Made by a program: the position numbers and the translations under genes | Shown: positions 46,459 through 64,000 of the stretch, piece after piece | How the letters are laid out: the number at the start of each line of letters is the position of its first letter | Numbering within the stretch: the stretch's first letter is position 1 | The notes under the pieces: model-generated | The model's database searches: none | Seen by the model: only the letters and a program-made list of their open reading frames with translations | What the model was told of the DNA's origin: nothing | From: a virus | IMG/VR virus record: IMGVR_UViG_3300028833_000003 | DNA: 64,000 nt | Strand: one strand, 5' to 3'

Positions 46459-46480
46459 CCGCAGGCGCCCGCTTGTTTTT
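46449..46480 (+). terminator. terminator-like hairpin at end of early region
   Basis: GCCTG-TGACCG-CAGGC followed by GCCCGCTTGTTTTT. Confidence 0.45.
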
Positions 46481-48920: not shown

Positions 48921-48986
48921 ACTTAAATCACTAGCCTTTTTCTATCTTTCATATATATTATACCAAAAATTTTTAAAAAAATCAAT

Positions 48987-49965: not shown

Positions 49966-50196
49966 TCACTCCGCATCAGTATCGTTTGCAATAGTTACAT
50001 ATTTAGGCGCGCGAGGTGGTCTCTCAGCCAAAATTGTATTCAAATCCTTTTCAAACTTAGGATTGTTGGCAAACACCCAGCAAAGAAACTCCGGCTTACT
50101 AGGATTTGGCGTAGTAGCAACCGGTAAATTACCCATTTCAATCAACTTAGTCGCGATGCGGCGTGTGTAAATAATCTTATTAACATTCTCAGCCAT
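49966..50196 (-). CDS. small hypothetical protein (76 aa)
   Basis: ATG 50196 8 nt after GGAGG (ORF-track start 50211 overlaps the RBS); followed by hairpin GCGGAGTGATTATTCACTCCGT plus T-run. Confidence 0.65.
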   Translation of the reverse strand: MAENVNKIIYTRRIATKLIEMGNLPVATTPNPSKPEFLCWVFANNPKFEKDLNTILAERPPRAPKYVTIANDTDAE

Positions 50197-50273
50197 TTTA
50201 AATTCCTCCATTATGCGTCTGGGCGCACTTCGTTAATGTATTTGAAAGTTTTTTTGTCTCACTTTCTACATAT

Positions 50274-50302
50274 ATTATACCAAAAATTTTTCCGTCCGTC
50301 AA
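50274..50302 (-). promoter_or_regulatory. sigma-A type promoter for the minus-strand cluster
   Basis: Minus strand TTGACG-17 nt-TATAAT; back-to-back with the first class II promoter at 50304. Confidence 0.6.
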
Positions 50303-50365
50303 GTTGATTTTTTCAAAAAAATTTGTTATAATATACATATACGATGAAAGAAGGAGGAATACCCC

Positions 50366-50539
50366 GTGATTAAAACAGAACGCATTGATAATTTAATTCA
50401 CACATATAGTGATTAGGGCTTTATGATTAAGGCGCCAGATGGCTCAATAGTAAGTGAAGCCTTTGACCTGCGGCCGCAGACATATACCGAGACAAACGTC
50501 AAAGCGCCCGCACACGAAGAAATTGACGAAGAAGCATAA
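50366..50539 (+). CDS. small hypothetical protein (57 aa), one TAG sense codon
   Basis: GTG 50366 after AAGGAGGA; TAG at 50414; TAA 50537; below the ORF-track cutoff because of the TAG. Confidence 0.5.
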
Positions 50540-50605
50540 AACTTGATTTTTTAATAAAAATATTATATAATATATATATAAGATAAAGAAAGGGTTGGTG
50601 GCAAA

Positions 50606-51361
50606 ATGGTAGCAAAGTCTTATCAGAACAAAGAAATCGTCGGTGAGCCCTACACTGTGATGCTTGACAAACGTGGCGCCGTCCAGTATGTAAAGATTAA
50701 GACGGGCCGCACCAATCCGGATGGCTCTCCCGTTATCAAAGAAGTGCGCTGGTATTCCGAAGAGGAATACTATAAAATGTATCCCCAGGAGATGCCGCAA
50801 ATCGTCTTTGATGCTAAGAAGGGCTTTGGCTTCGATAAAGGTTATATTTGGATTTTCGGTGGCGATACTTATAGCGAACTGGAATGGTTCCGCGCATGCC
50901 CTGTAACTCGTTACGCTCGCCATTTCGGTTGGTATGTTGTAAGTACCGATGAGCTGCCCAACGATATTCCCGAAGGCGTTGAACCCATTAAGCTGATGTG
51001 GGAACAGGTGTCGGATGGCAACGACAACATCCTCGATGAAGATAAAATCAAGTCGATTGTGCGTGACATCCTTCATCCTATTGATACGCGCAGCACCTAT
51101 CAGGGCGAAATTGGCGGTAAGATTACTGTAACGGCCAAATGCACGATGTGCCGTGAGGTTTATGGACCGTATGGTATTTCTGTGCTGCACAATTTCGTCG
51201 ATGCTAATGGTAATGTCTATGTCTGGTTCACTCAAAAGAGCCTTGAATCTGGCAAGACCTACACTTTCAGCGCGAAAGTAAAAGACCATAAGGAATATCG
51301 TAACCAGCAGCAGACTATTATCTACTATCTGCGTAATATTAAGGAGGTAGAAAATGCCTAA
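50606..51361 (+). CDS. hypothetical protein (251 aa), C-terminal part possibly OB-fold-like
   Basis: Class II promoter at 50543; uninterrupted GC-richer ORF. Confidence 0.75.
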   Translation: MVAKSYQNKEIVGEPYTVMLDKRGAVQYVKIKTGRTNPDGSPVIKEVRWYSEEEYYKMYPQEMPQIVFDAKKGFGFDKGYIWIFGGDTYSELEWFRACPVTRYARHFGWYVVSTDELPNDIPEGVEPIKLMWEQVSDGNDNILDEDKIKSIVRDILHPIDTRSTYQGEIGGKITVTAKCTMCREVYGPYGISVLHNFVDANGNVYVWFTQKSLESGKTYTFSAKVKDHKEYRNQQQTIIYYLRNIKEVENA

Positions 51362-51704
51362 TTATAACATTACGTCTGAATGTATGAGTGCAAAAGATGC
51401 AGTTGCTCTTTCTAATAAGGAATACCAGCGCCTGCGGGACCTGGTATTCCAGCTTTTGCGTAAAACTTTTAACGATGAAGTGCGCAAGGCCGCAACCACT
51501 GGCCTGCATTGGTTTAGATGGCGCGTCGTAGATAATAATTTGCATGTATCAACAGCCGTCACAGAAGAACTAAGTGATTTTGTGCGGCACCTGCGTGCGC
51601 TAGGATATGCGGCGGATGTAACTACTGGCCATTCTGGTGTAACGAATGGTTATATTTGCGCATGGGGCGAAGATGCTGCTAAATTGATTGAGGAGAATAT
51701 GTAA
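51354..51704 (+). CDS. hypothetical protein (116 aa)
   Basis: AAGGAGGTAG RBS, overlaps the previous stop. Confidence 0.7.
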   Translation: MPNYNITSECMSAKDAVALSNKEYQRLRDLVFQLLRKTFNDEVRKAATTGLHWFRWRVVDNNLHVSTAVTEELSDFVRHLRALGYAADVTTGHSGVTNGYICAWGEDAAKLIEENM

Positions 51705-51907
51705 TGGATGTATTAAAAATGACGGTCGGGCATCTTTCAGAAACTGAAAGTGAAGCTCTTAAAACTGCGGTTGATGTATTAGAAGAAGTCATGGCAACTG
51801 CGCAAGAATATAATTCTATTTATCATGATGCAGAGACAGCCAAAGATGCTATTGAGATGTTCATAATTAAATATGTTCGCAATAGAACGGACGTGTGGTT
51901 CAAATAA
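51704..51907 (+). CDS. hypothetical protein (67 aa)
   Basis: GGAGGAG RBS, TAATG junction. Confidence 0.65.
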   Translation: MDVLKMTVGHLSETESEALKTAVDVLEEVMATAQEYNSIYHDAETAKDAIEMFIIKYVRNRTDVWFK

Positions 51908-52380
51908 TGAAATTTTATACATCATATTTCTATCAAGTTAGGTTTTTTCCACCTAATTTAATTCCTCTATCAACAGCATGTTCAGACCCAAAATGGTTTC
52001 ACGACAATAAAGGTTTAAAATGGCAATTCAAAGATAAGCGCGGCGTGCTAAATGGACTGCGTGCCGAACCGTTTGTGCCCGGCTAGCAGTTATATGGATT
52101 GTGTCGCGGACCTGAATATTGTGAAACAATTAATCCTCAAACGTGTGATTTTTTACGTGCTTATAAAGCACAATTAGATGCGTTATACTATGATAGTATA
52201 ATGTATCGTTTCCAACAGTTGCATGATAAAATATGTCATGCAGAGAACCTTGACAATGTAGATTTTGCTCTTTTGGTCCATGAGGCACCGACAAACCAAT
52301 GTAGTGAAAGAAAAACTCTACAAAATTGGTTTCTTTCACATAACGTGCCAATTAGCGAATGGTCAAAAGATCAAATATAA
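51907..52380 (+). CDS. hypothetical protein (157 aa), one TAG sense codon
   Basis: ATG 51907 (TAATG overlap); ORF-track pieces 51895..52086 and 52099..52380 are in one frame, separated only by TAG 52084. Confidence 0.65.
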
Positions 52381-52405
52381 ATAATTTATTTAAAGGAGAA
52401 AGTGT

Positions 52406-53074
52406 ATGAAGAAGTTTGTAGTTTTCATTATGTCTATTCTCGTCGCGCTGTCAGTAGTAATGTCAGCATCTGCGCTGACGCTATCTGGTGAAGCATTGTG
52501 GGCCATTAGCACCGAACAGCATGTTATGGGCATTATTGACCCGGCTAAGGTAGAGCACTACTTTGGTCCGCAGGAACCTCCTAAGCCCTATGTGCGCGGG
52601 TTCCTTGAAAATGGCCTGGTGCGCGAGAAAGGTTTGCAGGCTTACACTATCAGCGCAAGCGGTCAGCTGGGTGGATTTACTACTCTGAAAACGACTGTTA
52701 CAATTTTCCCTCAGTTTGAGGAAGTCGTTTATGGCCTAGTAACTGATAAGTGCGGATATGAACCCAATAGTGTAACAGATTATATCCTTGCTACTATGTA
52801 TTTTACTGATGAGTATGTCGGTCACGTATTTATTAAGACTAACGTGCCGAAGTTCCATGTTGGTACAATTACTATTACCGATAAAAAGGATACTATTGAA
52901 CTTTATATGGGCGACTTTGATCTTGATGGAAATATGGAACTTGGATTTGCGCCTGGCTGGACTCCTTGTCAGCCCGCACCTAAGAAGTGCTGCGGCAAAT
53001 GGACAGTTAAGTGCATTACTGTAACTCAGATTTGTTATATTAAGCAGTGCTTCCAGAAGACTAAGTGTAAGTAA
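52406..53074 (+). CDS. secreted protein with signal peptide (222 aa)
   Basis: AAAGGAGAAAG RBS; MKKFVVFIMSILVALSVVMSASA then ALTLSG (signal peptidase I type); followed by terminator GGCCGGTGAAAATCCGGCC plus T-run. Confidence 0.75.
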   Translation: MKKFVVFIMSILVALSVVMSASALTLSGEALWAISTEQHVMGIIDPAKVEHYFGPQEPPKPYVRGFLENGLVREKGLQAYTISASGQLGGFTTLKTTVTIFPQFEEVVYGLVTDKCGYEPNSVTDYILATMYFTDEYVGHVFIKTNVPKFHVGTITITDKKDTIELYMGDFDLDGNMELGFAPGWTPCQPAPKKCCGKWTVKCITVTQICYIKQCFQKTKCK

Positions 53075-53192
53075 TTTATTTGGCCGGTGAAAATCCGGCC
53101 TATTTTTTTATGCAAAAATGAATCATCTATTTGAAAATTTTAAAAAAATATTATATAATATATATGTAAGATAAATAAAGGAGATGTGGCAA

Positions 53193-54995
53193 ATGAGCGT
53201 TTATGAAATCTTTAATGCTTATCGTATGCGTTACGCGACTGGTTCTGAAAATTGTGAGTGTTCTCCTGACGAAGTGTCTGAGGAAGTATTGCTGCAACCC
53301 TGGCGCAAAGCTAAGGGCGAATATCTGATGCAGTTGTTCGGGGATCAGCTTATCCTGGAACGTCCTTTCACCTATCGTCGTGGTGAGGACGAACTGCGCA
53401 ATGATATGTCTAATTTCCTTGATCGCAACATTGCCATGTCTTTCCGCAAGATGATGTGGTCTAAGGTTTGTGACCTGCTTGGTATTGAAAGCCGGCAGTG
53501 GTATTGGAATGATGGAGTTCTCTTTGGTGATGTAGAGGACCTTCCCAAAGAGTCTCAGGAGCGCGCTAAGCGTTATAAGGTGGCGCTGGCGCTTGAAAAT
53601 GCGTTCAGCTTTGATTCTCTGATGGAGAACCATATCGGTGTGGATAAGGCAGTCTCTTGCAAACTGGATGATGGTCGGCGTATTTCCATTGGTTTGAATG
53701 AAAAGCCTATGCGCGTTATCGGTAAGTTTGTTAAGCTGTTCCCTGACGATACTGACATGAAGGAACAATTTGATAAGTATTGTGTTATGCACTCTCAGGT
53801 GCTGAACCAGAAGACGCTGAAAGGCACCATCTGTCTGTCTATTCATCCTCTGGACTATGCTACCGCTTCTGACAATGCGAATGGCTGGTCTAGCTGTATG
53901 TCTTGGCAGGAGCAGGGATGCTATCGTATTGGTACTGTCGAAATGATGAATAGTCCTATGGTTATTTGCTGCTATGTCAAGAGCGATAATAACATGCTGG
54001 ATTGGAATTACGCGAATAAGCATTATGTTTGGAATAGCAAAAAGTGGCGCGCTTGGGCTATTCTGGATATTCATCAGTGCCTGATTAATAAGCAGTATCC
54101 TTATGACAATGATGATTTGGCCACTTTCTGCCTGAACTGGATTCGTGAGCTGGCGGCTGAAAAGCTGGGCTGGACTTTTGATGCTCCTAAGCTTATCTAT
54201 GGTGAAAATCCTTCTCATCATGGCGGTCGTGAGATTGATGGCGGTTATACTCTTGTGTATGACATGAATAAAATGTATAACGACATCAACATCAATGGTG
54301 AAGGTAATCTTTGCTGTCTGCGGCATAATTATGCTAAGCTGTGGAAAATGCCTCAGCGCGTTCATATTAACGTGAGTGGCGTAGATCAGTGCATGTGTTG
54401 CGGCAAGGTGTCTAACTGGGACGACCAGACCGAAGGTTCTCTGTTTGGCACTTGCTGCGATGCTGAAAATGGTTGCCATTGCGCTCGGTGCGGTGATTAC
54501 GTCAATGAAGATGACATCTATTATGGTCCTGATGATGTCGCTTATTGCCAGGATTGCTATAATGATATATTCGGTCATTGCGAAATTTGCGACAGTGATG
54601 TTGAGCGCGAATATATGAATGATGTAACTGTTCATATCCCCGAGGATATGATTAAGGAAGGTCTTGAAAAGATTAACGCCATGCCGGAAGTTGATGGATA
54701 TTTCGACCTGAGCGATTGGCAGATTACCGATTATAGCCTGCGCAGCTTCTCTGTGTGCGACCAGTGCTGTAAGGATTATCATTGGAGAATTGTGCATGAC
54801 CCTCGTCTCAATGGTCATCAGTTCTTTGGCGATTTTATTGATACTACGAACAAGCAGATGGATGAAATTGATATTAGCATGTTACTGAGACATTGCGACC
54901 TGCCTGGCACTCATTATAACTTCCGTTTCAACCACTCCACTCGCGAAAAGATGCAGGCTGTGTGGATGGACCTGTGGGATAAATACATGAAGTAA
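53193..54995 (+). CDS. large Cys-rich protein of unknown function (600 aa), paralog of 58174..59511
   Basis: Class II promoter at 53131, AAGGAG RBS, ATG 53193. Shares core SIHPLDY-x8-W-SCM and NSKKWRAW with the paralog, then multiple CxxC pairs. Followed by a terminator hairpin. Confidence 0.8.
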   Translation: MSVYEIFNAYRMRYATGSENCECSPDEVSEEVLLQPWRKAKGEYLMQLFGDQLILERPFTYRRGEDELRNDMSNFLDRNIAMSFRKMMWSKVCDLLGIESRQWYWNDGVLFGDVEDLPKESQERAKRYKVALALENAFSFDSLMENHIGVDKAVSCKLDDGRRISIGLNEKPMRVIGKFVKLFPDDTDMKEQFDKYCVMHSQVLNQKTLKGTICLSIHPLDYATASDNANGWSSCMSWQEQGCYRIGTVEMMNSPMVICCYVKSDNNMLDWNYANKHYVWNSKKWRAWAILDIHQCLINKQYPYDNDDLATFCLNWIRELAAEKLGWTFDAPKLIYGENPSHHGGREIDGGYTLVYDMNKMYNDININGEGNLCCLRHNYAKLWKMPQRVHINVSGVDQCMCCGKVSNWDDQTEGSLFGTCCDAENGCHCARCGDYVNEDDIYYGPDDVAYCQDCYNDIFGHCEICDSDVEREYMNDVTVHIPEDMIKEGLEKINAMPEVDGYFDLSDWQITDYSLRSFSVCDQCCKDYHWRIVHDPRLNGHQFFGDFIDTTNKQMDEIDISMLLRHCDLPGTHYNFRFNHSTREKMQAVWMDLWDKYMK

Positions 54996-55091
54996 TATAA
55001 CTATCCTCACTCTACAACAAGAGTGAGGATTTTTTATTTGAAAATTTTAAAATATTTTGATATAATATATATAGAAAGTGAGGGGTGATGA

Positions 55092-55331
55092 ATGATGTTT
55101 GTAAGTTTTGAAGATGTTTTTAACGCTGAAAAACAAGAGATGTTAGCTAATAAAATTCATGAACGTGCCATTAAGGAGCATTGGTGCTGCACGTGTCGTC
55201 ATTGTAAATGCGAACATGATGGTGATTGGTGCGAATTCCGTAACACTGTTGCTGATGGCCCTTGCTTATTTTATGAACTTGAACCAAGTCATTGGACTAT
55301 ATATATTACAGAAGGAGGCAACGATAAATGA
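55092..55331 (+). CDS. Cys-rich small protein (79 aa)
   Basis: Class II promoter at 55038; HWCCTCRHCKCEHDGDWC. Confidence 0.7.
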   Translation: MMFVSFEDVFNAEKQEMLANKIHERAIKEHWCCTCRHCKCEHDGDWCEFRNTVADGPCLFYELEPSHWTIYITEGGNDK

Positions 55332-55579
55332 AAAGTCAAAGATGGTATGAAGATAATCCTGAACCGTATTATGAAAAATTTAGAGTTATTGACCAAGAGC
55401 TGGCTAATTTACGTATTGAAAATGAATTACTGCGGTATCAAAATATACGGCTGCGTGACCAGCTCTCTGCCTTTCAAGCCAGATATGGCCCATTGACATT
55501 GGATGATGATACCAGTGGTCCGCCCGAAGGACATGAGCGCCACGATACTGGCGTCTGGACGCCTGCTAACAAATGGTAA
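55328..55579 (+). CDS. hypothetical coiled-coil protein (83 aa)
   Basis: GAAGGAGG RBS, ATGA overlap. Confidence 0.65.
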   Translation: MKSQRWYEDNPEPYYEKFRVIDQELANLRIENELLRYQNIRLRDQLSAFQARYGPLTLDDDTSGPPEGHERHDTGVWTPANKW

Positions 55580-55645
55580 GCACAAACTTGAAAATTTTAA
55601 AAAAATTTGATATAATATATATGTAAGATGAAGGGAGGCAATCGA

Positions 55646-55879
55646 GTGCGTGATGTAGATTATGGCATAATCGACAAGGATGAGTTAATGCGATTACTAA
55701 TCGACTTGCAAGAAGGACTAATTGAAGAACGGCGCATGCGTGATAAAATGTGTGAGCTATATGAGCGACAATTAAAAATTCAAGACGCTGAAATTAAACG
55801 GTTGCAATCTGAATTAGCCTTAGCTCATGAAAAAACAAAAACATCTTTTATAAAACGACCGGCTCCCTTGAGAAAATAA
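55646..55879 (+). CDS. hypothetical coiled-coil protein (77 aa)
   Basis: Class II promoter at 55588; GTG 55646 7 nt after GGGAGG (ORF-track ATG 55628 precedes the RBS). Confidence 0.55.
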   Translation: MRDVDYGIIDKDELMRLLIDLQEGLIEERRMRDKMCELYERQLKIQDAEIKRLQSELALAHEKTKTSFIKRPAPLRK

Positions 55880-55952
55880 AAAAAATTTGATATAATATAT
55901 ATGTAAGGTAAGGAAAGAAATCCTACCAAATAAAGAAAGGAAGTAATTCACA

Positions 55953-56342
55953 ATGACGAAGCGCGAAATGTTTGAGAAGGCTATTGCTATCCTGTCCAAC
56001 GACAATGCCAATGACGAAGTTGTTGCTATGATGCAGCATGAGATTGAGATGCTCGATAAGCGTGCGGAGAGTGCGAAGGCTGGTTCCGAGAAGCGGAAGG
56101 CAAAGCGTGCGGAAACTTCTGACACCATCCGGAACTCTGTGTATGATGCCGTAGCCAATGCGGGTGCGCCGGTTGATGTATTCGCGATTGTTGGTGCGAT
56201 GGATAACGCTCTTACTAAGGGCCAGGTAGTTGCTTATCTGACTCAGCTGGTGCGGGATGGTCGTATCACTCGTGATGCCATCAAGTATAAGGATGCTGAT
56301 GGTCATACCAAGAACGGCTCCGTATACTCTGTCGTAGCGTAA
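55953..56342 (+). CDS. paralog family A member 5 (129 aa), diverged
   Basis: Class II-type promoter at 55868; same architecture (helical N-terminus, basic KRKAKRAE linker, winged-helix-like C-terminus ...LTQLVRDGRITRD...). Confidence 0.7.
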   Translation: MTKREMFEKAIAILSNDNANDEVVAMMQHEIEMLDKRAESAKAGSEKRKAKRAETSDTIRNSVYDAVANAGAPVDVFAIVGAMDNALTKGQVVAYLTQLVRDGRITRDAIKYKDADGHTKNGSVYSVVA

Positions 56343-56401
56343 TAAGAGTGTAAGCGATGGGGAGCGATGTGTTGTCGCTCCCCATTTTTAGGAGTGATTT
56401 A

Positions 56402-57220
56402 ATGAAATATATAATAAATAAACAATGTAGTATGCCATATAAACGTAATGATAATTGCGGTGGGATTGAGTATTATTGGCGTGATTTAAAAGATGCGCTG
56501 GAAGATAATGTCAATCTCAATGGCGAAAAAAATATTTATTTAATGTTTCCATCTGATTATGATTTCTCAGATATAGATGAAATCTTAAACACAATGGAAC
56601 GGTTGCCTAATTCTTGGTTTTTGCTGCCTTCAATTGAAGCTATTAATGTTGTAGTAACTGCCGCAAAAGCAAAAGGCATTGAACCTCGGTGCGGTTTCCG
56701 TTATATGATTACAACTTGGAAATTGTTTTTGCGAGCACAGCAAGCTGGCGCCACATATTTCTTATTTGGTGAGCCCCTCACATTTATGATGCGCCGGCTA
56801 CATGAAGTTAAAAAGGATAATTACATTTATTCTATGATACCATGTGCGTGTGATGAATCTCATTATATCAAAGACATTTGTCAATTCTGGGTATTGCCGC
56901 AGCATATGTATCTTTATGAAGGCTTCATAGATTATGCGGTAATTCCTTTTACGACGCTTAATCAAACTCAGACTGTAATTGATAGTTATTGGTCTGATAA
57001 AGATTATGTTTATCCTTTGTATTTGTTAATTTATAATATGGAATCGAAATATAAATTGCCAGCTAATTGGTTCACAGATAAATTTGCAAAGCTGCGTTTG
57101 GATTGTGAGCAAGAGTGTATAGTTGGTAATCCAAGATGTCATTATTGCGAACGAGAGTGCCACTGGTGGGACTTTGTAAGGGAGAATAGAAATGACTTCA
57201 AAATGGTTAAAACTGTATAA
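56402..57220 (+). CDS. hypothetical protein with Cys-rich C-terminus (272 aa)
   Basis: ATG 56402 after AGGAG; C-terminus DCEQECIVGNPRCHYCERECHWW. Confidence 0.7.
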   Translation: MKYIINKQCSMPYKRNDNCGGIEYYWRDLKDALEDNVNLNGEKNIYLMFPSDYDFSDIDEILNTMERLPNSWFLLPSIEAINVVVTAAKAKGIEPRCGFRYMITTWKLFLRAQQAGATYFLFGEPLTFMMRRLHEVKKDNYIYSMIPCACDESHYIKDICQFWVLPQHMYLYEGFIDYAVIPFTTLNQTQTVIDSYWSDKDYVYPLYLLIYNMESKYKLPANWFTDKFAKLRLDCEQECIVGNPRCHYCERECHWWDFVRENRNDFKMVKTV

Positions 57221-58226
57221 AAATCTTTGTGGCATGAATCAAGTTCAAACTCGTCAATTTATGGCGCAGTTTCTACGACATCAAGATTACAAAAATGTCA
57301 CATTGACAAATAACTATGTGTATGCGGAAGGTGATATTCCTATCGCGCTAGTTGCACATAGTGACACTGTGTTTAAAACTTTGCCAAGAGAGATTTTTCA
57401 TGACCAAGAGAAGAATGTCATTTGGAGCCCAGAAGGCATGGGCGCTGATGATAAAGCTGGTATTCTAATGATGATTGCGATTATTAAGAAGTATGATTTA
57501 AAACCGCATATCATTGTTACTGCTAACGAAGAAATTGGATGTCTTGGTGCATCGAGCCTGGTAAAGAAAGTTCCGAATTGTCCGTTTGCTGAATGTAAGT
57601 ATCTCATTCAGTTAGATCGTAGAGGAGCAGATGACTGCGTATTTTATGATTTAGATGATATTGAGTTTGAAAAGTATATAGAGTCATTTGGTTTTAAAAC
57701 TCAATGGGGTAGTTTTAGTGATATTTCTACTATTGCTCCTGCTTGGGGTATTGGTGCGGTAAATCTCTCTGTTGGGTATGAGGATGAACATAGTTATCAA
57801 GAGCGGTTGTATGTAAATTGGTGGCAGGCCACGCTTGAAAAAGTTGTAAAGATGTTAAATGATGCTGGTAATACTTGCCAGTGGGGCTATACTGAACGAG
57901 CCTATTCTTATCATTATAGCGGCTATCCTTATGGTTGCAACGATTGGGAAGATACTTGTGATTGTTGCCATAACCCCACTCCTTATGCAGATATGCTGCC
58001 AGTATATACAAAAGATAATCCTACTTATGGTATGGATATTTGTCCAGACTGCTTTGCAAAAATTTGTTTGGAAATGTCCTGGTGTAGCAAATGTAATAAA
58101 GGCTGGTATGGTTTTGGCCAACAGCCAAAAAATTGGGTGTGCCCAACTTGCGCTGGAAAGGAAGTAAATACCAATGCAGCAACTAAACTCAATAAAAGAC
58201 CTTCAAAAGATACATATAAGTTTTAA
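57192..58226 (+). CDS. clan MH (M20/M28/M42-like) metallopeptidase-fold protein with C-terminal zinc-ribbon tail (344 aa)
   Basis: AAGGGAG RBS; ordered motifs LVAHSDTV, GMGADDKAGILMM, TANEEIGCLGA, LIQLDRRG, GYEDEHS; then CDCCH...CPDC...CSKC...CPTC. Confidence 0.65.
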   Translation: MTSKWLKLYKNLCGMNQVQTRQFMAQFLRHQDYKNVTLTNNYVYAEGDIPIALVAHSDTVFKTLPREIFHDQEKNVIWSPEGMGADDKAGILMMIAIIKKYDLKPHIIVTANEEIGCLGASSLVKKVPNCPFAECKYLIQLDRRGADDCVFYDLDDIEFEKYIESFGFKTQWGSFSDISTIAPAWGIGAVNLSVGYEDEHSYQERLYVNWWQATLEKVVKMLNDAGNTCQWGYTERAYSYHYSGYPYGCNDWEDTCDCCHNPTPYADMLPVYTKDNPTYGMDICPDCFAKICLEMSWCSKCNKGWYGFGQQPKNWVCPTCAGKEVNTNAATKLNKRPSKDTYKF

Positions 58227-59511
58227 TTACGTGTATGACTGGCTGTATGAACAGCGCCACGGCACTGTTCATACAGACCATCTATTTAATACTTGGGTCG
58301 AAGAAAAGAAACGTTTTTATAGCGCTTGGGGAGATAAGTTAATCTGGGAATATCCTAAGCGCGTTAGTTTTGATTTGTCCGAGCGTGAGCGCGAACAGCG
58401 CTTGACTGAGTTTATTGGCCACGTATATGATGATTTGTGCTGCGACCTTGGAAAATTTCTGGAAGATAATAAAAAAGGTATTCTGGAAAATAAAATGGTG
58501 TCTAATCAATTTATAGATATTAATGGTAGGCCGCACACATTCCCAGAGCATCTTAAATTAAGTCGTGCTATTCTACAAATGGCATCAAAAGAAAAACTGT
58601 GTGAGCCATCAGAAGCTGAATATGTGCGGTGCCGCATCGCGGAACTTATTCAAGAGACTAAGATTACAGGAAAACTTTGTTTTTCTGTGCATCCTCTTGA
58701 TTATATTAGTATTAGCGAAAATCAGTCGAACTGGCGCAGCTGTCATGCTCTTGATGGTGAGTTCGCTAGTGGCAATTTATCATATATGCTAGATCCTTAT
58801 ACTGTTGTAGCATATCTTCGCAGTGATAAGCCTGAACGACTGCCGCGCTTCCCAGATGATGTGCCGTGGAATAATAAGAAATGGCGTATGCTGCTTTGTT
58901 TTGACAACATTCATCATATGGTATGGGCTAATCGACAGTATCCTTTTTATAGCAAGAGCGCATTAGATACAATTGGTGAAATTTTAAATGATCATATGCA
59001 TGATTGGAAATTCTTCGATAAAAATTTTGATGTAGCAGATTTATTACATATACCGCGTTTTTGTTCAAATTCTTTTAAGAGTTTTAAAAAGAACACTGCT
59101 AATAGTGATACTTTTAATTTGAATGAAACATGGATGTTTTGGAAAGGCGATATTTGTAAGGTAGAAGAGTTGGTTGGCAACGAATCAGGGAGTTTGAATT
59201 TTAATGATTTAATTGATTCAAGCACTTATGTACCAGACTTTTTAAGTTATGATAGTTATACAGATTTAGATAAATTGCGGAAATATCCTAAGATGCTTTT
59301 AGGCGGGGTACCACATTGTATCTTCTGTGATAACCAACCAATAGCATATACATCAATTCCGCTTTGTCCGGACTGCCTTCAAGAAAGTAAAATCGAGACG
59401 GAGTATATTACATATTGTTCATGTTGCGGAAAGAGGATTCTCTCAGAGGATGCACAATATGATTGCGGCGATCCATACTGCGATGATTGCTATGCGCGGT
59501 TATATAATTGA
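58174..59511 (+). CDS. large Cys-rich protein of unknown function (445 aa), paralog of 53193..54995
   Basis: AAGGAAG RBS 9 nt before ATG 58174 (53-nt overlap with the previous gene); SVHPLDY-x8-W-SCH, NNKKWRML; C-terminal CIFC...CPDC...CSCC...CDDC. Confidence 0.75.
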   Translation: MQQLNSIKDLQKIHISFNYVYDWLYEQRHGTVHTDHLFNTWVEEKKRFYSAWGDKLIWEYPKRVSFDLSEREREQRLTEFIGHVYDDLCCDLGKFLEDNKKGILENKMVSNQFIDINGRPHTFPEHLKLSRAILQMASKEKLCEPSEAEYVRCRIAELIQETKITGKLCFSVHPLDYISISENQSNWRSCHALDGEFASGNLSYMLDPYTVVAYLRSDKPERLPRFPDDVPWNNKKWRMLLCFDNIHHMVWANRQYPFYSKSALDTIGEILNDHMHDWKFFDKNFDVADLLHIPRFCSNSFKSFKKNTANSDTFNLNETWMFWKGDICKVEELVGNESGSLNFNDLIDSSTYVPDFLSYDSYTDLDKLRKYPKMLLGGVPHCIFCDNQPIAYTSIPLCPDCLQESKIETEYITYCSCCGKRILSEDAQYDCGDPYCDDCYARLYN

Positions 59512-59567
59512 TTTTTTTAAAAATATATGATATACTATATATAGAAAATAAGAGGAGGATTTGAGCT

Positions 59568-59852
59568 ATGGCCAAGGGTTCTATTGCTAAGGGTAATCTT
59601 ATTAAACGATTTGCGGACGCCGTGGGCGCCGATTATGTAGGTGAGTATGATAAGAAATGGTATTTTTGGAGCACTGAGAATGGCGAGCGCGTTCAGGTTG
59701 CTGTCTCATTGACATGCCCAAAGACGCCGGTCGGTGAATCTAATGTTAATACTTTTGGTGGAGAGGAAGTAGCGCCAGCTGCTGCACCAGCAACAATGTC
59801 TGAAAGTGAGCAAGCGCAGTTGGATAAGCTCATGGTCGAGTTAGGGCTATGA
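59568..59852 (+). CDS. hypothetical protein (94 aa)
   Basis: Class II promoter at 59508, GAGGAGGA RBS. Confidence 0.7.
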   Translation: MAKGSIAKGNLIKRFADAVGADYVGEYDKKWYFWSTENGERVQVAVSLTCPKTPVGESNVNTFGGEEVAPAAAPATMSESEQAQLDKLMVELGL

Positions 59853-60082
59853 TTATTCAAAGCGAAAAAGAATTTTTAGATTGGCTAAGTGGTGCTTCCA
59901 CAGATGAATAGGATAAAGCAGTTTGTTAGTATTATCAAGATGAAACACTTGTTTCTCTTGCTGATGCTATGTGGGATTTAAATCCTAATGATTTTTGGTG
60001 GTATTTAGATAATGGCGATATAAGAGTATTCACAGTTGAACCTACTAAGGAGGAATTAGATTCGCCATGGCTGAGCCAATAA
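59849..60082 (+). CDS. hypothetical protein (77 aa), two TAG sense codons
   Basis: ATG 59849 overlaps the previous TGA (ATGA); in-frame TAG at 59909 and 59927; TAA 60080; absent from the ORF track. Confidence 0.55.
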
Positions 60083-60606
60083 GAGGAGAAATAAAAATTA
60101 CTGTATCTGAGCCAGCAAGAAAACCATCTCCATTAGAAGCAGGTGAGCCACAACCAGTATGGTTAGGCACAGAAGAAGATAAATTAGCTCCGCTTGATGA
60201 AGATAAATATTATAATACTTCTACAGTGTTAATGCCAGATGGTTCGTATAGACATGTAAGTGTTGCTTATGAGAAATATTTACATGAAGATTTGGTATGG
60301 CAGATAAAATATACTGATTATAATGGTAGAAGCAAACGTTTTAAAGAACAACAAGAGAAGAGAAATATAGAAAATAAGTATTATAAGTTTTGTTTGGGCG
60401 AAGAAGGACAAAAGAAATTTGATGATTTTATAAAAAAATACAGAAATTATGAGAACAAGAGCGGTATGTATCCTCCTGGTGCATATTACGTGTTTATTAT
60501 ACATCCGACATATTTGGGCGATGTTGTGACATGTGAAGTGCGGCAGTCGGATAAATACGGCGACGAGACTATTATTGATAGTTGCGAAGTTTATAATGAA
60601 ATATAA
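60067..60606 (+). CDS. hypothetical protein (179 aa)
   Basis: ATG 60067, AAGGAGG 13 nt upstream; uninterrupted ORF. Confidence 0.7.
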   Translation: MAEPIRGEIKITVSEPARKPSPLEAGEPQPVWLGTEEDKLAPLDEDKYYNTSTVLMPDGSYRHVSVAYEKYLHEDLVWQIKYTDYNGRSKRFKEQQEKRNIENKYYKFCLGEEGQKKFDDFIKKYRNYENKSGMYPPGAYYVFIIHPTYLGDVVTCEVRQSDKYGDETIIDSCEVYNEI

Positions 60607-60672
60607 TCCTTATAGTTGAAAATTTAAAAAAAATTTGATATAATATATATGTAAGATGAAGGGAGGAAGTAA

Positions 60673-60828
60673 ATGATGGATTTTGAAAATGCTAAGCAAC
60701 AGCTGATGGATTGGATTGGTGCGTCACCTTTCTCTTGGAAACTTGCGGTTTTAGCTGAGATAGAGCAAATTCAAACTTGGGATGAATTGCAGCGTATGGC
60801 TCGGCAGTGGGGTGTTACTTTTCAGTGA
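60673..60828 (+). CDS. small hypothetical protein (51 aa, below ORF-track cutoff)
   Basis: Class II promoter at 60616, GGGAGGAAG RBS, ATG 60673, TGA 60826. Confidence 0.55.
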   Translation: MMDFENAKQQLMDWIGASPFSWKLAVLAEIEQIQTWDELQRMARQWGVTFQ

Positions 60829-60906
60829 TACCAAAGGCGGGTAAATAAATTGGGGCCAATATTCCGCCACCCCTGAATATATTTAATGGCAAAGGAGGCA
60901 AAAAGT

Positions 60907-61113
60907 ATGGAAGCTTTGCAAAAGAATAAGATTATATTCACCTATAAGAACAACGATAATGTCTATGCGCATGATATTAATCTGGAATTTTCTATCGGAG
61001 AACCTAAGTTAAGTGAAATTCATTCGATGTGCAAGGATTTTGCACGAGTAATGGGTTTCTCGTCTGAACAGGTTGAAGAGTATTTTGGAGAGGACGTGTG
61101 GGACATTGACTAA
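60907..61113 (+). CDS. hypothetical protein (68 aa)
   Basis: ATG 60907 8 nt after AAGGAGG (ORF-track start 60886 precedes the RBS). Confidence 0.6.
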   Translation: MEALQKNKIIFTYKNNDNVYAHDINLEFSIGEPKLSEIHSMCKDFARVMGFSSEQVEEYFGEDVWDID

Positions 61114-61258
61114 ATTGTTGCGGCTGGACCTGGATATAAATCAGTTGATGCAGAAGTTGCAGGATGGCGATTGCTCTGAATCTGAGCTGAATTTTCTTAA
61201 GAACCTGTATCATGATTTGGACGAACTCTTTAAAGACCTCAAAAACTTGAAAAATTAA
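61073..61258 (+). CDS. possible small coiled-coil protein (start uncertain)
   Basis: Overlapping ORF with no clear RBS; ends in the UP region of the next promoter. Confidence 0.3.
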   Translation: MKSILERTCGTLTKLLRLDLDINQLMQKLQDGDCSESELNFLKNLYHDLDELFKDLKNLKN

Positions 61259-61289
61259 AAAATTTTTGATATAATATATATGTAAGGTT

Positions 61290-61458
61290 GAGAGAGAAAT
61301 CAATCAATCCTGGATGACAAGAGATTACCACCTACGCTGTGCATAGTGTAGGATGGAGTGTGAAGTCGCCCACGGTAATGGGGTCTGGGTAAAGAAATGG
61401 AGCGCCAGATAGTAGGAGTTGATCGCCCTATAAGACTCACTAAGTCATCTGCTTTAAT
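61290..61458 (+). ncRNA. structured non-coding leader between class II promoter (61247) and tRNA-Thr
   Basis: No ORF; nested pairings ATTACC(61334)...GGTAAT(61385) enclosing CCTAC...GTAGG; GC-richer than surroundings. Confidence 0.35.
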
Positions 61459-61531
61459 GCCGGTATAGCTCAGTAGGTAGAGCGTTTCCTTGGTAAGGAA
61501 AAGGTCCCCAGTTCAAATCTGGGTACCGGCT
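61459..61531 (+). tRNA. tRNA-Thr (anticodon GGT), CCA encoded (to 61534)
   Basis: Cloverleaf by hand: GCCGGTA/TACCGGC acceptor, GCTC/GAGC D stem, TTTCC-TTGGTAA-GGAAA, CCCAG-TTCAAAT-CTGGG. Confidence 0.9.
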
Positions 61532-61534
61532 CCA

Positions 61535-61730
61535 TTACGCGCTGCTCGCGCCGTTTAAGAGGTGGCAAGGAACCCAGTCGCCAGAGCAAAACATGGGCAA
61601 GCCCCACGAAACTGAGGCCGTAGAGCCGAGCACGTGAATCGCGATAAGTCGTGCGAAGGGAGTACTGGGATACAGGGCTGAGGTCACTCGCGAAGGTGGC
61701 GAAACCTTAACCATACGTGCGATTTTATAT
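61535..61730 (+). ncRNA. GC-rich non-coding spacer, probably structured RNA
   Basis: No ORF; several local stems (e.g. GGTGGC...GTCGCC, TCGC-GAAGGTG-GCGA); co-transcribed with tRNAs. Confidence 0.3.
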
Positions 61731-61885
61731 GGGAAGTGATTGACACATCAGGGTAGTGTCCGCTGTGATAAATCACCGACTCCGGGCAAACAGGAGCTAA
61801 TGCGTAAGGGCAATAGAGCATTTAATTGCACGCGCCGAAGTGGATCCGCACATCCACTGGGGTTCAAATCCCCCACTTTCCACCA
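61731..61885 (+). ncRNA. 155-nt tRNA-like RNA: acceptor stem with G3:U70 and A73-CCA, T-arm, but five internal hairpins instead of D and anticodon arms
   Basis: GGGAAGT pairs with ACTTTCC (G-T at the third pair), then A and CCA. GGGG-TTCAAAT-CCCC T-arm. Internal hairpins at 61742-61760, 61765-61776, 61780-61796, 61802-61833, 61840-61857. Confidence 0.45.
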
Positions 61886-61888
61886 TAT

Positions 61889-61961
61889 ACCCCTATAGCT
61901 CAACTGGCAGAGCATCTGACTCTTAATCAGAGGGTTCAGGGTTCAAGTCCCTGTGGGGGTA
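61889..61961 (+). tRNA. tRNA-Lys (anticodon CTT), CCA encoded
   Basis: ACCCCTA/TGGGGGT acceptor, TCTGA-CTCTTAA-TCAGA, CAGGG-TTCAAGT-CCCTG. Confidence 0.9.
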
Positions 61962-62044
61962 CCAGTTCGCCTTTGGCGATGTATTCATCTGAACAAAAGC
62001 GATGATTAAACTGATGTGTGGTTGGCTGACCTCAAAGCTATTAT

Positions 62045-62117
62045 GCCGTTATGGCGCAATAGGTAGCGCGAGTCTTTCGTAAAGACTAGGTTCTGAGTTC
62101 AAGTCTCAGTAACGGCC
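62045..62117 (+). tRNA. tRNA-Thr (anticodon CGT), CCA encoded
   Basis: GCCGTTA/TAACGGC acceptor, AGTCT-TTCGTAA-AGACT, CTGAG-TTCAAGT-CTCAG. Confidence 0.9.
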
Positions 62118-62124
62118 CCATTAT

Positions 62125-62197
62125 GCCGCGTTAGCTCAGTTGGGAGAGCATTTGCCTTACAAGCAAGGGGTCGGCGGTTCGAGCCCGTCACGCGGTA
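62125..62197 (+). tRNA. tRNA-Val (anticodon TAC), CCA encoded
   Basis: GCCGCGT/ACGCGGT acceptor (G1-U72), GCTC/GAGC D stem, TTTGC-CTTACAA-GCAAG, GGCGG-TTCGAGC-CCGTC. Confidence 0.85.
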
Positions 62198-62201
62198 CCA
62201 T

Positions 62202-62272
62202 AGGCGATTGATGTAACGGTAACATACCGGACTCTGACTCCGTTGTTCAAGGTTCGAATCCTTGATCGCCTG
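62202..62272 (+). tRNA. tRNA-Gln (anticodon CTG), CCA encoded
   Basis: AGGCGAT/ATCGCCT acceptor, CGGA-CTCTGAC-TCCG anticodon arm, CAAGG-TTCGAAT-CCTTG; the anticodon is CTG, not CTA. Confidence 0.85.
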
Positions 62273-62278
62273 CCATAT

Positions 62279-62352
62279 CGGAACTTAACTCAGTCGGTTA
62301 GAGTTCTGGTCTTATAAACCAGCGGTCCTGGGTTCGAGTCCCAGAGTTCCGA
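62279..62352 (+). tRNA. tRNA-Ile (anticodon TAT), CCA encoded
   Basis: CGGAACT/AGTTCCG acceptor, CTGGT-CTTATAA-ACCAG, CTGGG-TTCGAGT-CCCAG. Confidence 0.85.
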
Positions 62353-62381
62353 CCATACAAAATTCAATAGGAGATGATGTT

Positions 62382-62789
62382 GTGTATCAGAATGGTCAGC
62401 GTCTTAATAGACATGCGCGGAAGCGTCGGCACATTGATAATTTGAAGCGTCGATCTACTCCTTATGAGTTTAGTAGCTATGAAAGTTTTGTTGAGTATGA
62501 ACGTTATTGGGATGCATTCCGTGATGGTATGTTCGCGGCAATGTATGGTGATTATTATCCTCGTAGAACTCCTACTGGTCGTCCTTGGTATGAACGCTAT
62601 TGGGAGGCTTATACAGGATATGTCTCTCCTGGTTGGAAAAAGAATCTGAAAACGCAGGCGCACCGCGATGAGCGGCGTTACTGGCGTGAGCACCTTGGCG
62701 ATGTCATGAAAATGGAAGACATCGAAGATGAAGAAACTCCGCATGAGCGGCGTGGTCGTCGGCATAGTGACCCTTGGCACTGGGATTAA
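62382..62789 (+). CDS. Arg/Tyr/Trp-rich hypothetical protein (135 aa)
   Basis: GTG 62382 after AGGAG; uninterrupted ORF between the tRNA cluster and the next class II promoter. Confidence 0.6.
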   Translation: MYQNGQRLNRHARKRRHIDNLKRRSTPYEFSSYESFVEYERYWDAFRDGMFAAMYGDYYPRRTPTGRPWYERYWEAYTGYVSPGWKKNLKTQAHRDERRYWREHLGDVMKMEDIEDEETPHERRGRRHSDPWHWD

Positions 62790-62856
62790 CTTCCTTGAAA
62801 ATTTACAAAAAATATTATATAATATATATGTAAGATAAAGAAAGGGGATGCGCTCA

Positions 62857-63048
62857 ATGAAGTGGGATTGGTGTGATGAGTATAGCACTGGCGTTGATAA
62901 TTATCATGGCCAGATGGATTCTTTCGTATGTGATCTAACCGCAGAAGATATGTATGCGTATGATTATGCAATGCACGATACTTGGCAGGATGTTGAGCGT
63001 GAGTGGGCTGAGGAACTTGGCGTTGAGTTGGAAGTTTATGAAGATTAA
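62857..63048 (+). CDS. acidic hypothetical protein (63 aa)
   Basis: Class II promoter at 62795; ATG 62857 after AAAGGGGA. Confidence 0.6.
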   Translation: MKWDWCDEYSTGVDNYHGQMDSFVCDLTAEDMYAYDYAMHDTWQDVEREWAEELGVELEVYED

Positions 63049-63300
63049 ATCCCTGACCGCGAACTTGAAAAATTAAAAAAAATTTGATATAATATATAAG
63101 TAAGGTTAAGAAAAAAAGTAAAAGAAAAAAATGCTGGAAAACCTCACAACCTTGACAAAATAAAAAAAATATGATATAATAATTAAGGAGAAGGAAAACT
63201 CCATAAACCCCACAAACTACGACAATGTGGTTAAAAAGTCGAAACTGGGTCCCGCGGCCAGGATAAAGACACGTGGGGTAGATTGGTGAGAACGTAGTGT

Positions 63301-63317
63301 AGGGGTTCGAATCCCCT
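63301..63317 (+). other. orphan tRNA-type T-arm without a recognisable cloverleaf
   Basis: AGGGG-TTCGAAT-CCCCT; I could not pair a 7-bp acceptor stem or find D/anticodon arms in the flanking 90 nt; no CCA. Confidence 0.4.
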
Positions 63318-63413
63318 TGCGGTGGCTCGAAGTAACAAGTTGGTCACTTGTGCTCGCCGCACGGATATAGGCGATACCGCGTTTGGCAAGATCACCGCTT
63401 GCATCACTTTTAT

Positions 63414-63486
63414 GACCTGTTCGTCTAGTGGTTTAGGACGCGGCCCTCTCAAGGCTGGGACATAGGTTCGAATCCTGTACAGGCCA
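63414..63486 (+). tRNA. tRNA-Glu (anticodon CTC), CCA encoded
   Basis: GACCTGT/ACAGGCC acceptor (A2-C71 mismatch), Glu-type D arm TCGTCTAGTGGTTTAGGAC, CGGCC-CTCTCAA-GGCTG, ATAGG-TTCGAAT-CCTGT. Confidence 0.8.
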
Positions 63487-63496
63487 CCACGTATAA

Positions 63497-63568
63497 TGCG
63501 GCGAGGGCAAACGGTAAGCCACCTGGCTCATAACCAGAAGATAGTGGGTTCAACTCCCACCGCCGCTA
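63497..63568 (+). tRNA. tRNA with CAT anticodon (elongator Met or Ile2), CCA encoded
   Basis: TGCGGCG/CGCCGCT acceptor (U1-U72 mismatch), CTGG-CTCATAA-CCAG, GTGGG-TTCAACT-CCCAC; lacks the three G-C pairs of initiators. Confidence 0.7.
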
Positions 63569-63650
63569 CCAGGACTGGCACTGTCCGAAATAAGTGCTGT
63601 GGGGAACGCCAGCGCACATCTGGTGAGGGTGAAAAGGTAGAAGGCATTGT

Positions 63651-63667
63651 CCGGGTTCGACTCCCGG
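63651..63667 (+). other. second orphan T-arm
   Basis: CCGGG-TTCGACT-CCCGG followed by CGGAGGAGGG; no acceptor partner found and no CCA. Confidence 0.4.
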
Positions 63668-63689
63668 CGGAGGAGGGTCGCGATGTCAG

Positions 63690-64000
63690 AAAACTCTGAT
63701 GCACTTAGAGTCTAGCCCCGCTCAAAGGGAGGCCACCCGAGAGCGCATACTGAGCCCATAACAGATAAGAGAGTGGGCAGTAGTCACGCTACTATAAAAA
63801 GGTGTAAGTTCCGCCTATGGAAAAGTATCGTAGGAGTCGGCAAGCAGGGCCAAACTGCTACAAGCTTGGTAGTCAGGCAAGCTATTTACACTCAGCCAGA
63901 GATCTGGTGGCGTAAAGGCATCGTCGTAATTAGTATAAATGTTGCGTAGCAACCACGCAACCCGTCCGTGGGCAGAATAGATGGGGTAAATTGAGTGTAA
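63690..64000 (+). ncRNA. GC-rich apparently non-coding region running off the right edge
   Basis: No standard-code ORF >=60 aa; local stems such as GTTGCGT-AGCAACC-ACGCAAC; continues the tRNA-cluster transcript. Confidence 0.3.

Follow-up and report, generated by a model that had tools for sequence, protein, structure and literature searches.

A stretch of viral DNA of 64,000 nucleotides (nt; IMG/VR record IMGVR_UViG_3300028833_000003), here called the window, contains a family of nearly identical promoter-like repeats, which a preliminary description of the sequence had named class II and which are analyzed here. ENA contig ERZ27257202 k141_292341 (168,974 bp) matches the window at 100% identity, and 70 kb of this 169-kb genome were inspected. 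The virus, a large and uncultured phage of the gut, is predicted to infect one of the Clostridia. Its structural proteins show distant similarity (33-47% identity) to their counterparts in large Bacillota siphophages and in the human-gut phage phAss-1. A megablast search of positions 50000-63500 against GenBank phages gave no match.

The left part of the window (1-31.1 kb) carries late genes on the minus strand, which are recoded at TAG; the long early open reading frames (ORFs) on the plus strand contain no in-frame TAG. When TAG is ignored as a stop codon, the minus strand is read as a 4,559-codon ORF (1386-15062) with 103 in-frame TAG codons, a portal gene (25119-26717; 533 codons, 5 TAG), a terminase-like gene (27095-28843; 583 codons, 5 TAG) and two further ORFs at 28843-30033 (10 TAG) and 30015-31097 (6 TAG). 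On the plus strand a block of promoters of a different kind, class I, is closed by a strong terminator at 46443-46474. Past the window end, the source contig continues with a further 14 tRNAs, a PhoH gene and two additional class II promoters (L243 17632 and 18177). None of the 22 tRNAs in the 70 kb inspected is a suppressor tRNA, and an Rfam search of 46-64 kb (E<=1) returned tRNAs only, with no known leader, riboswitch or transfer-messenger RNA. The predicted promoters and the tRNA clusters are listed below with their position weight matrix (PWM) scores.

31793-46014, plus strand: comparator class I block of ~31-36 promoters, each with upstream A-tract, TTGACA, G/C-containing 17-nt spacer, TGn and TATAAT.
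39745-39793, plus strand: class II-like promoter embedded among class I promoters (TTGACA, aatttaaaaaaatgtga, TATAAT, AATTATAGAAAA; PWM 37.2), heading 39797-40255.
48937-48985, minus strand: class II promoter and leader (TTGATT, AT spacer with TGg, TATAAT, ATATATGAAAG; PWM 51.0), heading a 124-amino-acid ORF at 48546-48920 on the same strand.
50254-50302, minus strand: variant class II promoter (TTGACG, TATAAT, ATATGTAGAAAGTGAG; PWM 36.0), heading 49966-50211 on the same strand.
50304-50352, plus strand: variant class II promoter (TTGATT, AT spacer, TATAAT, ATACATATACG; PWM 46.9).
50543-50591, plus strand: class II promoter (PWM 49.8), heading 50606-53074 (from a 251-amino-acid protein to a 222-amino-acid Cys-rich protein), with a terminator at 53082-53100.
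53131-53179, plus strand: class II promoter (PWM 57.8), heading a Cys-rich protein of 600-603 amino acids (53184/53193-54995), with a terminator upstream and another at 55003-55030.
55038-55086, plus strand: class II promoter of the AGAAAGTGAG start subtype (PWM 51.7), heading a small gene at 55092-55579.
55588-55636, plus strand: class II promoter, consensus copy (PWM 61.4), heading a small gene at 55628/55646-55879.
55868-55916, plus strand: class II promoter of the GTAAGG subtype (PWM 56.3), heading 55953-60606 after a 50-nt leader.
59508-59556, plus strand: internal class II promoter (TATACT as -10, ATATATAGAAAA start; PWM 43.5) for 59568-59852.
60616-60664, plus strand: class II promoter, consensus copy (PWM 62.0), heading small genes at 60673-61258.
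61247-61295, plus strand: class II promoter with GTAAGGTTGAGAGAGAAA leader (PWM 58.8), heading tRNA cluster 1.
61459-62355, plus strand: tRNA cluster 1 (Thr, Lys, Thr, Val, Gln, Ile), downstream of promoter 61247.
62795-62843, plus strand: class II promoter (PWM 55.8), heading an ORF of 63 or 66 amino acids (start at 62848 or 62857, end at 63048).
63065-63113, plus strand: class II promoter with ATATAAGTAAGG (PWM 58.1), first of a tandem pair upstream of tRNA cluster 2.
63152-63200, plus strand: hybrid promoter (TTGACA, AT-only spacer with TGa, TATAAT, AATTAAGG; PWM 26.1), second of the tandem pair.
63414-63571, plus strand: tRNA cluster 2 (Glu, Met), followed by the 14 tRNAs on the source contig.

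The family was defined by a scan for TTG-N20-TATAAT and a scan with a 42-nt PWM, and sites are named by the first base of the -35 hexamer. Twelve sites were found on the plus strand (50304, 50543, 53131, 55038, 55588, 55868, 59508, 60616, 61247, 62795, 63065 and 63152), in agreement with the preliminary description, which had counted twelve copies between 50304 and 63180; the latter position is the last base of the -10 hexamer of the twelfth copy. Two additional copies on the minus strand, 48985 and 50302, had been overlooked, and 50302 stands back to back with 50304. A search with TTGATATAATATATATGTAAG, allowing up to three mismatches, gave 10 matches where 0.02 were expected. Class II members had PWM scores of 36 to 62. 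In 30 shuffles the top score was 2.5 on average and 20.5 at most; the hybrid site 63152 scored 26.1.

All 14 copies consist of TTGnnn, a 17-nt spacer and TATAAT (TATACT in one copy), the hexamers and spacing of the sigma-70/sigma-A promoter type; the constant 17-nt spacer together with the perfect TATAAT of 13 copies is far above chance. The earlier claims that exactly 17 nt separate the hexamers and that the spacer is essentially free of G and C were confirmed. Spacers contain 0-2 G/C, and the single G mostly belongs to the TG of an extended -10 element; T(T/A)TG is usual at positions -17 to -14. An exception is the minus-strand copy 50302 with 6 G/C. Eight copies have TTGAAA as their -35 hexamer and four have TTGATT, while TTGAGA, TTGACG and TTGACA occur once each. 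The hexamer matches the consensus at four to six of the six positions, mostly at five. ATATAT serves as discriminator in most copies, and an uninterrupted A/T run extends from -12 to -1 (TATAATATATAT). The sequence ATATATGTAAG is exact in seven copies; variants are ATATATAGAAAG/ATATATAGAAAA (55038 and 59508), ATATGTAGAAAG (50302, minus strand), ATATATATAAG, ATATATGAAAG, ATATAAGTAAG and ATACATATACG. Two start subtypes were distinguished, ATATAT-GTAAG(A/G)T and ATATAT-AGAAA(G/A)TGAG, and units that open with a non-coding RNA or a tRNA carry the start subtype GTAAGGTT(G/A)AG. Judged from their sequence, the class II copies are very probably promoters.

Pairwise identity among class II copies was 0.80 in the -35 hexamer, 0.72 in the spacer, 0.97 in the -10 hexamer and 0.92 in the discriminator. 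Downstream it fell to 0.66 over +1 to +6, 0.59 over +7 to +14 and 0.33 past +15, and in the 25 nt upstream of the -35 hexamer it was 0.32. Because identity is bounded from the -35 hexamer to about +14, the class II repeat is a promoter-sized block of ~45-50 nt and not a duplicated gene segment. The corresponding values for class I are 0.39 in the spacer and 0.41 in the discriminator. Class I spacers contain 2-11 G/C (median 8), and the six bases past the -10 hexamer contain 0-4 G/C in class I versus 0-1 in class II. Upstream of TTGACA, class I shows the consensus aaAaaA.tTt.AAAAA.cTa, whereas class II has no conservation upstream of -38. Thus, two sharply different promoter families are indeed present on one strand, and they differ in spacer, discriminator and upstream A-tract. 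What defines class II is the combination of AT-only spacer and ATATAT discriminator with the absence of an upstream A-tract.

Two features by which the preliminary description had set class II apart were narrowed. The -35 hexamers TTGAAA and TTGATT are unlike those of class I within the window, but not as a feature of the class, since class II-like promoters of phAss-1 use TTGACA. The 11 nt described as conserved after the -10 hexamer comprise the ATATAT discriminator, which is class-specific, and a purine-rich transcribed start, which is common to class I; its purine fraction is 0.82 in class II (+1 to +20) and 0.76 in class I, against a background of 0.54-0.57. Early promoters for host takeover in SPO1 and strong sigma-A promoters of Gram-positive bacteria form dense near-consensus arrays with tiny genes and TG or TRTG upstream of the -10 hexamer. 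Such arrays resemble class I rather than class II, and we know of no fixed spacer, discriminator or start sequence described for them.

Class II was said to drive the Cys-rich gene cluster, both tRNA clusters and several small genes. Indeed, class II sites head the Cys-rich genes at 52406-59511, the tRNA clusters at 61459-62355 and 63414-63571, and small genes. They stand in the correct orientation either 19-50 nt before a start codon with a ribosome-binding site or in front of a tRNA cluster. In most protein-coding units the leader is 19-30 nt long, consists of ~82% purines and contains the ribosome-binding site. At the hybrid site 63152, the downstream sequence differs from that of the other class II copies. 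An intrinsic terminator immediately precedes each of the copies 53131 and 55038. A neighbouring terminator stem-loop was seen at only 2 of 13 copies, and the remaining upstream regions are unrelated coding ends. The unit behind 55868 (55953-60606) encodes a paralogue with a predicted winged helix, Cys-rich proteins and an M28-like peptidase. Pfam and PHROGs searches with class II genes mostly gave no match, save for the M28-like peptidase and families of unknown function.

We observed that the plus-strand proteins of 52406-59511 have Cys-rich C-terminal tails with CxxC-type repeats. The two Cys-rich paralogues at 53184-54995 and 58174-59511 both match phrog_18912, and the M28-like peptidase (57192-58226) lies within the cluster. 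The Cys-rich cluster has homologues in many phages of this clade, and in Enterococcus phages as well.

Both promoter classes recur in relatives of the window phage. The phage phAss-1 reads TAG as Gln and encodes 36 tRNAs, three of them suppressors (PMC10607447). Its complete genome contains ~26 copies of TTGAC(A/T)-TAAAAAAATTTTTATGG-TATAAT-ATATATAGAAA(A/G)TGAG. These class II-like copies span a block at 55.8-125.8 kb with ribonucleotide reductase, ThyX, replication genes and tRNAs. Suppressor tRNAs at 62.4-62.6 kb are located downstream of promoter 64042 (minus strand), and one at 105.7 kb downstream of 107093 (minus strand). A class I-like cluster with upstream A-tract and G/C-rich spacer was found at 127.7-130.8 kb, near one genome end. 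Both phages are TAG-recoded and have the two promoter classes, with the suppressor tRNAs of phAss-1 placed in class II-like units; they differ in that phAss-1 has three suppressor tRNAs and the window phage none among its tRNAs in 70 kb. Promoters are undescribed for code 15 gut phages, and the words sigma, RNA polymerase and promoter do not occur in the text of the phAss-1 genome paper (PMC10607447).

The IMG/VR locus L015 shows the same order as the window, a class I-like cluster followed by class II promoters with both start subtypes. In the cultured Enterococcus phage EF1, the class II-like design alone recurs; an example reads TATAAT-ATATATGTAAGTTAATTAAGAAAGGAAG. The 17-mer TATAATATATATGTAAG was found in at least 118 viral loci of IMG/VR. 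These loci encode homologues of the window class II genes with only 25-57% amino-acid identity. In 122 of 147 IMG/VR occurrences of TATAATATATATGTAAG a TTG is present 17 nt upstream of the -10 hexamer, and the spacer is AT-rich. In bacterial genomes and metagenome-assembled genomes (MAGs) the TTG was present in only 55 of 126 occurrences, and the full motif stood only on phage-like contigs with several copies, which had been assigned by binning to Clostridia (Ruminococcus, Acutalibacteraceae, Lachnospiraceae). Since the full motif is restricted to phage-like contigs, we treated it as phage-borne. The possibility that it mimics a strong promoter of the host itself was rejected, as chance matches elsewhere lack the TTG.

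The pairing of promoter class and gene is also retained. Despite its place in the class I block, the paralogue at 39797-40255 has a class II-like promoter; class II promoters also precede its orthologues in L015 (6114) and L046 (9234). In the window as in L015, the sister of this paralogue (44963-45436, plus strand) stands behind a class I promoter (44951 in the window) and has the same ATCGAAAGGAGCTGATGA leader. The minus-strand promoter 50302 is kept at the orthologous site in L015. As motif, layout and gene-class pairing persist across distant relatives, the comparison argues for purifying selection on a distinct class rather than for recent duplication as the source of the similarity. Within a genome, the spacer is more uniform than between genomes: copies share an identity of 0.72 in the window (0.88 in phAss-1), and the two consensus spacers differ.

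Phage T5 is the closest precedent, a large siphovirus with tRNA clusters in the early region and consensus-like -35 and -10 boxes. The host sigma-70 holoenzyme reads all three temporal classes of T5. What distinguishes early from late promoters is chiefly the discriminator, which in every early promoter is ATATT, immediately following TATAAT; the phage protein gpT5.026 binds the beta subunit and weakens the contacts between RNA polymerase and the discriminator (PMC7472727). A class-specific, AT-rich discriminator right after TATAAT was likewise found in class II. Early T5 promoters such as TTGACT-N17-TATAAT-ATATACATAAATTAG and TTGCAT-N17-TATAAT-ATATTCATAGATTGAGG have a purine-rich start with a ribosome-binding site, resembling the TATAAT-ATATAT-GTAAGATAAAG of class II. 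However, the host of T5 is E. coli and not a member of the Bacillota, T5 spacers contain G/C in contrast to the AT-only spacer of class II, and class II has an almost fixed sequence at +1 to +6. By analogy with T5, both classes would be read by the same host holoenzyme and may be set apart at the discriminator.

A second precedent concerns the upstream element. The protein gp67 (ORF67) of the S. aureus phage G1 blocks only UP-dependent promoters (PMC3694059; also PMC7698491). G1/K gp67 thus shows that a Firmicute phage can separate sigma-A promoter sets by an upstream A/T element, which is the difference between class I and class II: class I has a UP-like A/T element and class II has none. Discrimination of this kind involves a phage protein bound to sigma region 4 that obstructs the C-terminal domain of the alpha subunit. 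No gp67-like protein was identified; the early ORFs of the window had no Pfam match, and no direct sequence comparison with gp67 was made. The Kayvirus consensus is TTGACW-17-TRTGN-TATANT, with the start at the sixth base past the -10 hexamer, that is after a 5-bp gap (PMC7698491); the late class of Kayvirus, by contrast, has no -35 element and depends on a phage sigma factor. On the strength of these analogies, class II would belong to a known category, the host-polymerase promoter families that define gene classes in large lytic phages.

With moderate confidence, we regard class II as a set of strong promoters for the host housekeeping sigma factor, each with a short purine-only leader, which serve a separately regulated group of genes. 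We have the same moderate confidence that class II forms a distinct regulatory class. The reading enzyme would be the housekeeping holoenzyme of the host. Being uninterrupted, the A/T run between -12 and -1 should melt very easily. Transcription probably starts at a G or A seven nt past the -10 hexamer, which would place the ribosome-binding site among the first 10-25 transcribed nt. A purine-rich start should also help the polymerase to escape from the promoter (PMC12464699, PMC5961368). As class II lacks the upstream A-tract, a UP-like element, it should be independent of the C-terminal domain of the alpha subunit. Judged from sequence, class II is a near-optimal housekeeping-sigma promoter, and so is class I by other means, namely the UP-like tract, a consensus -35 hexamer, TGn and a spacer and discriminator that contain G/C. 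Class I would then represent the immediate-early set of tiny host-takeover genes. Class II could be a delayed-early or middle set with tRNA arrays, PhoH and accessory genes, and the class II-like set of phAss-1 would comprise nucleotide-metabolism genes and suppressor tRNAs. The two classes might be discriminated by a phage product acting on RNA polymerase, for instance by blocking UP-dependent or discriminator contacts, or alternatively by an intrinsic difference in their sensitivity to the state of the template.

Several observations weigh against separately regulated housekeeping promoters. Both classes look strong and constitutive and hence could fire at once. The purine-rich start had to be rejected as a difference between the classes, because class I also has it. 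Sensing of the initiating nucleotide was likewise rejected as class-defining, since the start is G in the window and A in phAss-1. The A-run in the spacer is displaced by 4 nt in phAss-1 relative to the window, which argues against a fixed polymerase contact in the spacer. Furthermore, a factor that could tell the classes apart was not found. The preliminary description had proposed a search for a phage sigma factor, anti-sigma factor or RNA polymerase modifier, and Pfam detected none in the early ORFs of the window. For this search the ORFs were concatenated with Gly-Ser (GS) linkers, and the sole hits were a linker artefact (Serglycin). No helix-turn-helix domain was detected by Pfam in these ORFs either. 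A homologue of gpT5.026 was absent from tblastn searches of the window, L243 and phAss-1 (best E 1.5; 70 of 169 kb for the window phage). A phage sigma factor or RNA polymerase could still be encoded elsewhere in the 169-kb genome.

Conservation past the -10 hexamer might instead reflect selection on the RNA, for an unstructured purine leader for translation, for 5' stability or for a handle of class-specific decay. The polypurine sequence of Bacillus SP82 and STAB-SD are known 5' stabilisers of mRNA, and T4 RegB mediates class-specific mRNA decay. In agreement with such selection, leaders are mostly 19-30 nt long with a purine fraction well above background (0.82 versus 0.54-0.57), and each class has its own leader consensus, tRNA and non-coding units using GTAAGGTT(G/A)AG. 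Many leaders of relatives can also form a hairpin from the first transcribed base (GTAAG...CTTAC), as judged by eye only. However, the AT-only spacer and the ATATAT discriminator are untranscribed and so remain unexplained, and tRNA units keep GTAAGG although they need no ribosome-binding site. Selection at the RNA level is thus a real possibility, but we consider it less probable than not as the main cause.

A simpler account holds that both classes are early and read by unmodified host polymerase, forming one temporal class in two flavours that stem from modules of separate ancestry, with copies homogenised by recombination or duplication. Both classes match the housekeeping consensus almost perfectly and occupy separate blocks, and copies are more alike within than between genomes, the pattern expected of concerted evolution. 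This pattern is not specific, since a spacer flavour that is phage-specific and uniform within a genome fits concerted evolution and co-evolution with a phage-specific binder alike. Mobile promoter/stem-loop cassettes of the T4 type (PeSL) provide a model for such homogenisation; they are repeated early promoters that flank small genes in a plastic region. Class II repeats of ~40-50 nt could support recombination in the same way. A cassette model, however, calls for a terminator stem-loop beside each copy, and only 53131 and 55038 follow a terminator hairpin. In addition, the two-class layout persists across relatives whose proteins are 25-57% identical, and the 17-mer of discriminator and start is exact in more than 100 contigs. 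Orthologues moreover keep their class inside the other block (39745 versus L015 6114 and L046 9234), and such retention in distant relatives points to regulation, not shuffling. We therefore consider a single temporal class unlikely.

It is also conceivable that a phage DNA-binding protein reads the class II spacer or discriminator, as an operator superimposed on the promoter, and thereby turns the whole set on or off. The only candidates for a discriminating factor are paralogues of ~125 amino acids that are predicted to adopt a winged-helix-like fold:

37155-37532, 38452-38817, 42897-43280, 44503-44898 and 55953-56342, plus strand: winged-helix-like paralogues (predicted fold).

Four of them are located behind class I promoters and one (55953-56342) behind the class II promoter 55868. 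The structural model (predicted local distance difference test, pLDDT, 77.5) gave MarR/ArsR-like matches in Foldseek (top E 0.009-0.05, probability 1.0, template modelling (TM) score 0.35-0.56), suggesting candidate DNA-binding factors. A profile search against PDB reached a best E of 0.23, Pfam gave no match, and PHROGs returned weak matches to families of unknown function only. An operator would account for spacer conservation that exceeds the needs of RNA polymerase and for a spacer flavour that is specific to each phage, as co-evolution with a binder would give. The five paralogues with a predicted winged helix are also matched by several copies in L015 and L046. Yet the fold assignment is weak (TM score 0.35-0.56, PDB profile E >=0.2, no Pfam match), tblastn detected no homologue in phAss-1 although phAss-1 has the promoter class, and no clear dyad was seen in the class II site; AT-only tracts also make poor specific operators. 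An operator of this kind appears quite unlikely.

More speculative, and improbable as it stands, is a clade-wide middle set under the control of a factor, either an RNA polymerase modifier or the winged-helix paralogues, which would recognise the near-invariant sequence of spacer, discriminator and start. With tRNA arrays among its members, and suppressor tRNAs in the case of phAss-1, such a set would on firing fix the time at which TAG is reread. If this were true, the switch of the genetic code would be wired to one promoter class, the recoded late genes becoming translatable thereafter, in phages of gut and rumen Clostridia. A sigma factor or RNA polymerase of the phage itself is a very improbable reader of class II: only part of the genome was inspected and the late genes, which lack obvious housekeeping-type promoters, may depend on another transcription system, but TTGAnn with a 17-nt spacer and TATAAT with TG is a housekeeping signature, and neither a sigma or polymerase domain in the early ORFs of the window nor a mention of sigma or RNA polymerase in the phAss-1 paper was found.

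The conservation of class II goes beyond the routine in that an exact promoter-plus-start sequence is kept across a broad clade, in a stop-codon-recoded phage, and that the suppressor tRNAs of phAss-1 fall in the same class. According to current ideas, the supply of suppressor tRNA gates the translation of late genes in recoded phages. The tRNA arrays belong to one promoter class, which bears on how recoded phages time the switch from the standard to the recoded code, and the 45-nt element offers a concrete handle on this timing. The Enterococcus phages EF1, H1 and VRE9 have similar promoters and may serve as cultured proxies. As a promoter-plus-leader module that is compact and seemingly very strong, the element could also be of use in Clostridia and Bacillota, and TATAATATATATGTAAG with a TTG 17 nt upstream of the -10 hexamer is a tag for a large phage clade in metagenomes.

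A number of further observations were made at the tRNA genes and in the other promoter regions. G+C-rich non-coding stretches among the tRNA genes (61535-61888, 63190-63413 and 63572-64000) contain T-arm-like GGTTCRAATCC motifs, and one 3' end within them reads ...CCACCA. Neither Rfam (E<=1) nor ARAGORN with default settings made a call in these stretches; relaxed ARAGORN settings gave a tRNA-Cys(GCA) with a 58-nt intron at 61731-61885. Odd or intron-bearing tRNAs are conceivable here, as are processing elements; the theta ribozymes that adjoin phage tRNAs (bioRxiv 10.1101/2023.06.13.544163) are a possible lead.

Downstream of class II promoters in relatives (L002, L012, L042, L059, L072, L080, L081, L086, L160 and L200), leaders read GTAAGATAAAGAAAG-GCAGAC-ACAGCAA, followed after 40-110 nt by GTCTGCC-TTG. 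These GTAAGATAAAGAAAG leaders form a long-range stem that closes just before the first tRNA, and some enclose a tRNA-like T-arm. One possibility is a conserved stalk for processing, another a small RNA; the window showed no counterpart.

When the minus strand was scanned in a simple way, no convincing late promoter family emerged. Two housekeeping-type promoters are present on this strand, one at the head of the recoded late operon (31108-31136; TTGACT-ttacaaaaaatttttgc-TATAAT) and one before the giant ORF (15674-15702; TTGACA-aaataaaaaaaatatgg-TATATT). Both have class II-like spacers with A/T runs and a different downstream sequence.

Within class I, a subfamily (37053, 40303, 43338, 44432, 45473 and 45986) has a conserved inverted repeat, GTTCCAAG(n)GAAC, at the predicted transcript start, which could be a 5' hairpin or an operator. 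Four class I promoters are crowded into ~850 nt at 44122-44962 (plus strand), with little obvious coding sequence behind the first three. One of these four, 44280, has a class II-like start, ATGTAAGATAAAGGAAAGGGG.

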